Shown: one piece after another, positions 17,413-17,472 of the stretch | Layout: the number at the start of each line of letters is the position of its first letter | Position numbering within the stretch: the stretch's first letter is position 1 | NCBI GenBank assembly: GCA_020833415.1 | Contig: JAJHQJ010000002.1 | Span: forward strand, 3,840 to 67,839 | Source of the DNA: Desulfurococcaceae archaeon | GTDB lineage: Archaea > Thermoproteota > Thermoprotei_A > Sulfolobales > NBVN01 | Length of the DNA stretch: 64,000 bases | Direction: 5' to 3' | Translations under genes and position numbers: made by a program | The notes under the pieces: generated by a model | Told to the model about the DNA's origin: nothing | The model's input: the letters and a program-made list of their open reading frames with translations, nothing else | The model's database searches: none

Positions 17413-17432
17413 CAAATTCCCAGCGGGTTTAC

Positions 17433-17472
17433 AGCTGAAAGCCTCGCCCTTTAGGGCGGGGAGGAGGTCAGC
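17433..17472 (+). repeat. Short hairpin repeat, copy c (near-consensus)
   Basis: AGCTGAAAGCCTCGCCCTTTAGGGCGGGGAGGAGGTCAGC preceded by TTAC (17429-17432), 20 nt after the trm1 stop. Confidence 0.9.

Follow-up and report, generated by a model that had tools for sequence, protein, structure and literature searches.

Short hairpin repeats in a 64,000-nucleotide stretch of a Desulfurococcaceae archaeon genome (contig JAJHQJ010000002.1, positions 3,840 to 67,839; this whole stretch is referred to as the window) are very probably non-autonomous palindrome-associated transposable elements (PATEs) of an element of the IS200/IS605 family that circulates among thermophilic archaea, with the 39-40-nt short form being its terminal-only version. 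A sequence-only reading of the window had proposed an archaeal family of minimal single-hairpin elements of the IS200/IS605 type, or resembling repetitive extragenic palindromes (REPs). The first part of this proposal was supported by IS200/IS605-type ends, by elements with such ends that carry a Y1 transposase gene, and by insertion polymorphism, but the repeats are not REPs of the kind served by REP-associated transposases (RAYTs); they are PATEs of the IS605/IS1341 family.

We scanned the window, with filters off, with a covariance model (R1) of 29 short copies, of which three, including the copy at 28413, came from the window and 26 were taken from other genomes. In total, six short copies (39-40 nt) and two long forms of about 245 nt were recovered, with four of the short copies on the plus strand, and the remaining two together with the long forms on the minus strand. 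All copies in the window except one are intergenic. The last two entries below are weak additional matches to the model (at 8904-8940 and 42138-42190).

9348-9387, plus strand: short element of 40 nt with an A-T closing pair and a TTCA loop, inside a truncated tnpB pseudogene of another insertion sequence (IS) family (match 9345-9387, 66.1 bits, E 9.9e-14).
13413-13451, plus strand: short element at the mutated target CTAC, between the S19 gene (stop codon at 13402) and open reading frame (ORF) 13452-13901 (match 13409-13451, 60.9 bits, E 1.7e-12).
17433-17471, plus strand: short element of 39 nt, 3' of TTAC (17429-17432), between trm1 and rpoH (match 17429-17471, 71.8 bits, E 4.2e-15).
28413-28448, minus strand: divergent short element, TTAC followed by GATTAAAACCTTGTCCTCAGGACGGGAGGAGGTTAG (match 28413-28452, 36.6 bits, E 1.1e-06, with its sequence among the 29 of the model).
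29558-29596, minus strand: decayed short element, its hairpin eroded and its TTAC and AGGAGGTCAG ends intact (match 29558-29600, 23.2 bits, E 0.0017).
43671-43709, plus strand: short element with the consensus sequence, 3' of TTAC (43667-43670; match 43667-43709, 73.8 bits, E 1.4e-15).
31476-31719, minus strand: long PATE form of 244 nt, more decayed, 3' of TTGC (match 31476-31723, left end 30.3 bits, right end 16.8 bits).
44201-44446, minus strand: long PATE form of 246 nt, 3' of TTAC (44447-44450), downstream of a PIN-domain gene (match 44201-44450, left end 50.4 bits, right end 24.6 bits).
8904-8940, plus strand: possible decayed left end (AACTGAAACCCCACCTTCAAGGTAGGG), then a TATA-like box (13.4 bits, E 0.36).
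42142-42190, plus strand: possible degenerate copy that starts with AGCTGTAAACC and ends with GGAGGGGTCAG, with neither a hairpin nor a TTAC flank (9.6 bits, E about 3).

The four near-identical copies that had been described at 9348, 13413, 17433 and 43671 are all present. The consensus given for the family matched 9349-9388, 17433-17472 and 43671-43710 with 0-3 mismatches (none at 43671), and the copy at 13413-13451, in which GTAGG replaces GTCAG at the right end, was added by a repeat finder. Chance palindromes were rejected as a source, since the consensus matched in none of 100 dinucleotide-preserving shuffles. A separate search with each half of the element exposed the minus-strand copies and two pairs of halves about 245 nt apart. 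Two of the three divergent copies that had been listed, at 28408-28448 and 29558-29596, are real but lie on the minus strand, whereas the third, at 42142-42191, is the weakest of the matches above. The short copies of the window are singletons, spaced 1-14 kb apart, with no inverted doublets or clusters.

Most of the structural features that had been claimed for the repeats were also observed. Six copies have TTAC as their left flank, and one each has CTAC and TTGC; the stem of 8 bp contains one T:G pair and encloses a loop of TTTA or TTCA. The outer CTGA/TCAG pairing was predicted in three of the four minimum-energy folds tried for the top strand of short copies, and the stem pairing of the 28413 copy has been kept through compensating changes. 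The suggestion that the hairpin pairs well on one strand only did not hold, as both DNA strands fold about equally (-9.9 versus -9.5 and -7.7 versus -7.5 kcal/mol); the asymmetry between the strands is one of sequence (T:G versus a C:A mismatch) and not of stability. On the reverse strand, the palindromic core scored only about 11 bits with the covariance model, as compared to 60-74 bits on the forward strand, and the element is thus directional. As had been noted, three copies follow a stop codon in gene orientation; the distances are 8-25 nt, and the copies are those downstream of S19 (stop at 13402), Trm1 (stop at 17412) and ORF 42740-43645, of which the last is 22-25 nt from its stop codon. 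No Rfam family matched the window at the gathering score, short forms included, and a tRNA search of the window found none.

Evidence for insertion comes from sites that are empty in relatives. Homologs of the Trm1 protein beside the 17433 copy are present in four metagenome contigs (L118-L121; loci are cited by L number) at 79-86% identity, and exactly the 39 nt of the element are missing from the trm1-rpoH spacer in all four. The filled site in the window reads GGGTTTAC:AGCTGAAAG...GGTCAG:CAGGAGAAGAGCTTATAACC, with the element boundaries marked by colons, as compared to GCGCCTAC:CGGGAGAAGAGCTTATAACC at the empty site in L118, where CTAC is found at the junction. At this site, the cleaner one, the copy lies exactly 3' of (T/C)TAC and there is no target duplication. 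The empty-site comparison also set the right boundary after TCAG, so that the copy spans 17433-17471 and the final C of the repeat as first delimited belongs to the flank. In the S19 spacer, the 13413 copy is missing at the orthologous site in L121.

An all-against-all junction search for empty sites or pairs of long and short forms covered 117 loci and provided one usable case, an Ignisphaera site with a 263-nt long form in L015 that is missing in L020. The pair L003/L005, a candidate for a long/short or empty-site comparison, was discarded as rearranged and uninformative. Inside the window, comparison with the tnpB paralog at 38745-38830 shows the 9348 copy as a precise 40-nt gap after TTTAC (GCGTTTAC:TAACTG...GGTCAG:CCCT versus ATATTCGC:CCTT). 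No flank is repeated at any of the four filled sites, so that target duplication is absent. Insertion polymorphism, which had been proposed as a check on the family, was thus recovered at two window sites and at the Ignisphaera site.

The left end of the family has the structure TTAC:AACTGAAAG-CCTCGCCC-TTYA-GGGCGGGG-ATG...; a BRE/TATA-like box (AAAGYTTATAAG) comes next, within about 10-20 nt. The right end has the structure ...GGAAC-CCTCGCCC-TTYA-GGGCGGGG-AGGAGGTCAG:. The short form is composed of nine left-end bases (including AAAG), one hairpin and ten right-end bases that end in TCAG, which is exactly the product expected from a deletion between the palindromes of the two ends. Its 9-nt and 10-nt flanks are non-complementary, and there are no terminal inverted repeats. 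Measured from a left end to the next right end, the copies fall into size classes of 37-41 nt (about 52 copies), about 210-330 nt and 0.9-1.9 kb. The short (39-40 nt) and long (about 245 nt) elements are too small for a transposase gene, and the largest class consists of complete insertion sequences that are bounded by the same left and right ends:

L020 (Ignisphaera), 1785 bp: complete element with tnpA and tnpB.
L064 (Thermococci), 1883 bp: complete element with tnpA and tnpB.
L102: element with tnpB only.
L003, L026 and L107: elements with a second tnpB type.

The Y1 transposase of L020 and L064 is 145-153 amino acids long, with HUH and tyrosine motifs, and is accompanied by a TnpB of about 430 amino acids. 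TnpA homologs adjoin the same left end in seven loci (L020, L064, L010, L069, L077, L092 and L103). TnpA matched Y1_Tnp in Pfam (E 1.7e-40) and transpos_IS200 in NCBIfam (157 bits, cut-off 55), while TnpB matched OrfB_IS605 and Cas12f1-like_TNB in Pfam and guided_TnpB in NCBIfam (154 bits, cut-off 100). The Y1 genes that the sequence-only reading had recommended searching for are thus located inside elements with matching ends. In L062, L082, L113, L003 and L107, the right end is without the canonical hairpin (GACGACCTGAAGGCGGGAGAGGAGGTCAG) though the left end is canonical.

We also compared these ends to those of IS608 from Helicobacter pylori. IS608 inserts 3' of TTAC, which serves as left cleavage site with the guide AAAG directly 5' of the left hairpin foot; the right cleavage site TCAA, with the guide GAAT, is located 10 nt 3' of the right hairpin foot (PMC3201880, PMC5934647). 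In the archaeal family, the corresponding tetranucleotides are AAAG/TTAC at the left end and GAAC/TCAG at the right end, with GAAC taken from the right-end consensus, and by analogy they would base-pair as guides and cleavage sites. The target and left cleavage site TTAC and the guide AAAG 5' of the hairpin foot are identical in the two, and so is the distance of 10 nt from the hairpin foot to the 3' end of the right cleavage tetranucleotide; both have imperfect hairpins, directional ends and a full element with tnpA and tnpB. The right pair differs at matching fourth positions (TCAG/GAAC here versus TCAA/GAAT, A/T changed to G/C), and the distance from TTAC to the hairpin foot is 9 nt as compared to 19 nt in IS608. 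Another difference is that the left and right hairpins of the archaeal family, which is known from sequence alone, are nearly identical, and this makes a collapse to a single-hairpin form possible.

Each archaeal or bacterial species was represented by one genome in an exact-pattern scan, which identified at least 113 loci; of those listed, all but four are archaeal and mostly from thermophiles. The four bacterial matches (L004, L046, L056 and L083) were rejected as chance matches in GC-rich DNA, with no TTAC flank and no right end. Among the matches listed, the carriers in the Thermoprotei include Desulfurococcales, Ignisphaera, Zestosphaera, Thermogladius, Acidilobales (Acidilobaceae), Caldisphaera, Sulfolobales, Caldivirga and Infirmifilum, and the other archaeal carriers belong to Thermococci, Archaeoglobi, Methanomethylicota, Nitrososphaeria, Bathyarchaeia and Thermoplasmata. 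In the same set, TTAC was found at a fixed offset in 75 of the 111 archaeal copies and the six bases preceding CTGAAAG are TTACAA in 71, while the positions 5' of TTAC vary freely. The family is thus neither confined to the window nor free of a flank preference. The hairpin closing pair, at positions that the search pattern left free, is of the Watson-Crick type in 103 of the 111 copies (C-G 73, T-A 25, A-T 4, G-C 1). Any base can follow TCAG (A21, C11, T8, G5 among the matches listed), and the 15-20 nt listed beyond it differ between copies and contain no common T-run. Across the loci, 51 of the 52 short copies are intergenic, and the neighboring ORFs are co-oriented in 49 cases and opposite in 28; within 60 nt past the end of an ORF, nine copies are co-oriented and three convergent.

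A contig of 17.7 kb from a viral collection (IMGVR_UViG_648936722_000001; L116 and L117) contains a left end with a tnpA-like start as well as two short forms. This suggests that the family may ride on viruses, proviruses or plasmids, and such carriage could help to explain its spread across phyla. In addition, a decayed short copy (CTTC:AACTGAAAGCCCCGCCCTTCAGAGCGGGGAAGAGGCC) was observed at positions 1732-1774 on the plus strand of L118, from a relative of the window organism, at a non-syntenic site, and the family thus had independent activity in that lineage.

The two long forms of the window show 78% identity per aligned column. The one at 44201-44446 contains the left-end hairpin (44418-44437), a BRE/TATA-like box (AAAGCTTATAAG) at about 44400-44411, a module that resembles the 3' part of tnpB and its guide RNA, and the right-end hairpin followed by AGGAGGTCAG, which terminates at 44201. 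Over about the last 110 nt up to TCAG, which take in the stop-codon region of tnpB, the long forms match the 3' termini of the L003, L107 and L026 tnpB elements; past TCAG, the sequences diverge completely. The consensus fold has 19 pairs, of which three are compensatory; CUGACC in the stop-codon region pairs with the terminal GGUCAG, and the three compensatory pairs lie in one further helix. Long forms of the same type were identified in other Thermoprotei (L023, L053, L038 and L032). The long forms are internal-deletion derivatives, a point missed in the sequence-only reading; they retain the promoter-like box of the left end together with the 3' tnpB module, which is the region of the TnpB guide RNA. 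The promoter-like box could drive a guide-RNA-like transcript that reaches into the right flank, and this transcript might be used by a TnpB supplied in trans. The sole intact TnpB encoded in the window, at 38208-39461, shares 29% identity with the L026-type protein, and no cognate TnpB was identified in the window.

When compared to Rfam, the long forms matched HgcC (RF00062) at 28.6 bits (E 6.6e-05) for the form at 44201 and 22.1 bits (E 0.0043) for the form at 31476, below the gathering score of 50 bits. Weak matches were obtained to sot0042, which in haloarchaea is the sense-overlapping transcript of tnpB genes; neither model can match the short forms, given their small size. A C/D-box or K-turn RNA, suggested by TGATGA and CTGA motifs in the long forms, was considered and set aside, as CTGA stems from the stop-codon region of tnpB. 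The motif TTGGTGATGAG is located about 25-35 nt past the TATA-like box in gene-less long forms (31640-31650 on the minus strand of the window, L023, L053, L015 and L055) and is missing from full-length elements; a transcript start region and a C-box-like motif are candidates for its identity. An ORF with a MoaE domain (Pfam; 31706-32233) stops at a TAG codon inside the left end of the 31476-31719 form, and its last five codons are derived from the element.

In the scheme that we propose, a full element consists of a left end with the 8-bp hairpin and promoter-like box, tnpA (Y1 HUH) and/or tnpB, and a right end with the same hairpin. TnpA supplied in trans would bind the top-strand hairpin, AAAG would pair with the target TTAC, and the element would enter 3' of TTAC by a single-strand peel-and-paste pathway that leaves no target duplication. 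The short form would most likely originate when a longer copy loses the sequence between its two hairpins, which are direct repeats. The window copies are fossils or dependants; there is no tnpA in the window, and several of the copies have mutated ends.

Several observations weigh against this account. The search of the window for tnpA, which the sequence-only reading had also failed to see, found no such gene (best tblastn E 0.28); the window copies are accordingly non-autonomous, and any trans-acting transposase of this organism is hypothetical. Two contigs of the same species (L114 and L115, with 99.4% and 100% identity, from JGI sample 3300045883 and ENA ERZ27247216) carry both copies unchanged, including the 17433 copy, and the lack of any presence/absence difference at this level of identity gives no sign of recent movement. 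No orthologous pair of a long and a short form was found among the 117 loci, so that a core deletion in situ has not been caught. For the long forms, promoter use and transcription are predicted from the sequence. TnpA dimers normally synapse two hairpins, and the single guide AAAG of the short form would mispair with TCAG at position 4 under the IS608 rule; on both counts, canonical excision of the short form is doubtful.

How the short copies came to their sites is a separate question within the PATE interpretation. We lean slightly towards the explanation that they are only deletion scars formed in situ, in which case a long or full element lost its core between the hairpins and the 39-nt form never moves. 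A crossover within the hairpin of about 21 nt that is common to both ends would leave exactly the short form, and such deletions have been observed between two Haloquadratum strains (PMC3119063). The short form has a single hairpin without a separate right-end guide, and the ends are decayed in several of the window copies, both of which fit with scars. On the other side, the short forms, which are very uniform across phyla, occur in about the same number as all longer forms combined, and no site among the 117 loci is long in one genome and short in another. Also, the six strain-specific ISHwa23 insertions in Haloquadratum are all of the 52-bp form, which the authors read as possible mobilization (PMC3119063). 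It is conceivable, if rather doubtful, that the 39-nt single-hairpin form is itself mobile, and that one TnpA-binding hairpin, one guide and two cleavage sites are enough when the enzyme is supplied in trans; the abundance and uniformity of the short form speak for this. If so, it would be about the smallest transposable element known, and its near-identity across several archaeal phyla would be explained.

We consider it improbable that the hairpins are primarily RNA elements of the host (stabilizers or terminators in 3' untranslated regions, donors of ribosome-binding sites such as GGAGGAGGT, or small RNAs of the HgcC type) with only an incidental transposon ancestry. The three window copies shortly past stop codons in gene orientation, the nine co-oriented versus three convergent copies close to ORF ends and the HgcC match of the long forms agree with a role in RNA, and overexpression of a PATE-derived RNA with the same hairpin improved the growth of Halobacterium (PMC4615843). 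However, the element is missing from the same spacers in relatives in which the flanking genes and the promoter are conserved, and it is thus dispensable there. An intrinsic terminator was rejected, as no common T-run follows the hairpin in the copies listed and any base can stand after TCAG. The overall orientation bias is weak, the short forms have no Rfam match at the gathering score, and near-identity across archaeal phyla combined with a TTAC flank would be unexpected for a regulatory motif of the host. Even less credible, and close to negligible, is the explanation that a domesticated RAYT services the copies as REP elements, in the manner of the REP/REPIN/BIME systems of bacteria: the short intergenic hairpins, the conserved flanking tetranucleotide and the link to Y1 HUH enzymes are shared with those systems, but the linked Y1 proteins pass the IS200/IS605 equivalog model and fail the REP-associated transposase model of NCBIfam (REP_Tyr_transpos, RAYT; 35.9 bits, cut-off 80), they travel inside mobile elements together with tnpB, and the window copies are kilobases apart rather than in inverted doublets or clusters.

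The interpretation as PATEs places the family next to several systems that have been described previously. PATEs were defined in Haloquadratum, where their palindromes match elements of the IS605 type and where a repeat-mediated deletion of the sequence between the end palindromes gave rise to the terminal-only form of 52 bp (Dyall-Smith et al. 2011, PMC3119063). The PATEs of H. walsbyi (core-deleted HqIRS46 and the 52-bp form derived from ISHwa23) and the elements described here are gene-less, without terminal inverted repeats, and are inserted beside a targeting sequence of 4-5 nt without target duplication. Both have one subterminal palindrome, as expected after a deletion between the direct-repeat palindromes of an IS605/IS1341-type element. 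They differ in size (39-40 nt here as compared to 52 bp) and in hosts (thermophilic Thermoprotei and other archaea as compared to haloarchaea). The H. walsbyi PATEs vary between strains, and the deletion event was caught there in a pair of strains, which is not the case here, where variation was seen only between more distant relatives. Terminal-only PATEs are therefore already known from Haloquadratum, and the family described here is smaller and occurs in other lineages but is not new in kind.

A stem of 8 bp with a UUCA loop has been reported from the right end of IS1341-type elements, and also from an expressed fused-end PATE RNA, from Pyrococcus small RNAs and from the HgcC family (Gomes-Filho et al. 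2015, PMC4615843). The right-end-like UUCA tetraloop, VNG_R0052 and HgcC have in common with our family the 8-bp stem, the loop of UUCA or UUUA and intergenic copies with fused ends. PATEs that carry guide RNAs and need TnpB in trans have also been described (Meers et al. 2023, PMC10055086). The PATE-like elements of Geobacillus stearothermophilus are, like the long forms, non-autonomous, share the ends of full elements and retain the guide-RNA region for a TnpB encoded elsewhere; the elements described here differ in their archaeal host and in the dedicated BRE/TATA-like box in the left end. Bacterial REP/REPIN elements with RAYTs are likewise short intergenic hairpins related to IS200/IS605 ends and to Y1 HUH enzymes, but the enzyme linked to the archaeal family is a transposon-borne TnpA of the IS200 type and the copies are single.

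For annotation in the Thermoprotei and further thermophilic archaea, the 39-40-nt hairpins and the forms of about 245 nt, which bring a promoter-like box of their own, are best labeled as IS200/IS605-derived PATEs, and not as terminators, small-RNA genes or REPs. One transposase-hairpin module is common to many archaeal lineages almost base for base, with the same target and left guide as in the bacterial IS608. The family offers a clean natural substrate for determining the minimum size of a single-strand transposon, and is also suited to the question of whether gene-less copies feed guide RNAs to TnpB in trans.

Other insertion-sequence remains, with tnpB genes and relics that the sequence-only reading had overlooked, were identified in the window, including a relic of an element of the cognate tnpA+tnpB type:

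5469-5915, minus strand: C-terminal TnpB fragment with a Cas12f1-like TNB domain (E 3.5e-11) and 28% identity to TnpB of the L026 type.
6740-6920, plus strand: gene-less derivative of about 180 nt of a second TnpB family, directly upstream of rtcB (6797-6856 is 87% identical to 39332-39391).
9007-9291, minus strand: relic of a cognate tnpA+tnpB-type element, with the C-terminal part of tnpB and a degenerate right end (GGGAGGGGGTTAGC), identified by tblastn with the L020 TnpB.
About 9260-9650, plus strand: truncated tnpB copy of the second family, host of the 9348 short element.
38208-39461, plus strand: intact TnpB of 417 amino acids from the second, unrelated family, with the element end ...GAGCTGA.

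The relic at 9007-9291 covers residues 329-423 of the L020 TnpB at 48-62% identity (E 1.4e-15), with the right-end-like match at 9007-9021, and the derivative at 6740-6920 combines a promoter-like box with the opening bases of tnpB and the 3' RNA region. The segment 8900-9650, between the rtcB region and the operon of ribosomal protein L3, is an insertion-sequence graveyard, in which a decayed left end, the minus-strand tnpB and right-end relic, and the plus-strand tnpB pseudogene with the 9348 element inserted are found together.

At 13445-13454, the 13413 copy has a mutated right end (GAAGAGGTAGG) that directly adjoins the ATG codon of ORF 13452-13901, and the purine-rich, GGAGG-like tail of this end may occupy the position of the ribosome-binding site of this ORF. 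In the thermosome gene (14014-15714), a segment of 75 nt (14806-14880) contains 31 differences between L114 and the window, as compared to only scattered differences in the rest of the 7.2 kb. A 5-nt indel was also observed at 15721-15725, just past the gene. The divergent segment looks like a tract of recombination or gene conversion.

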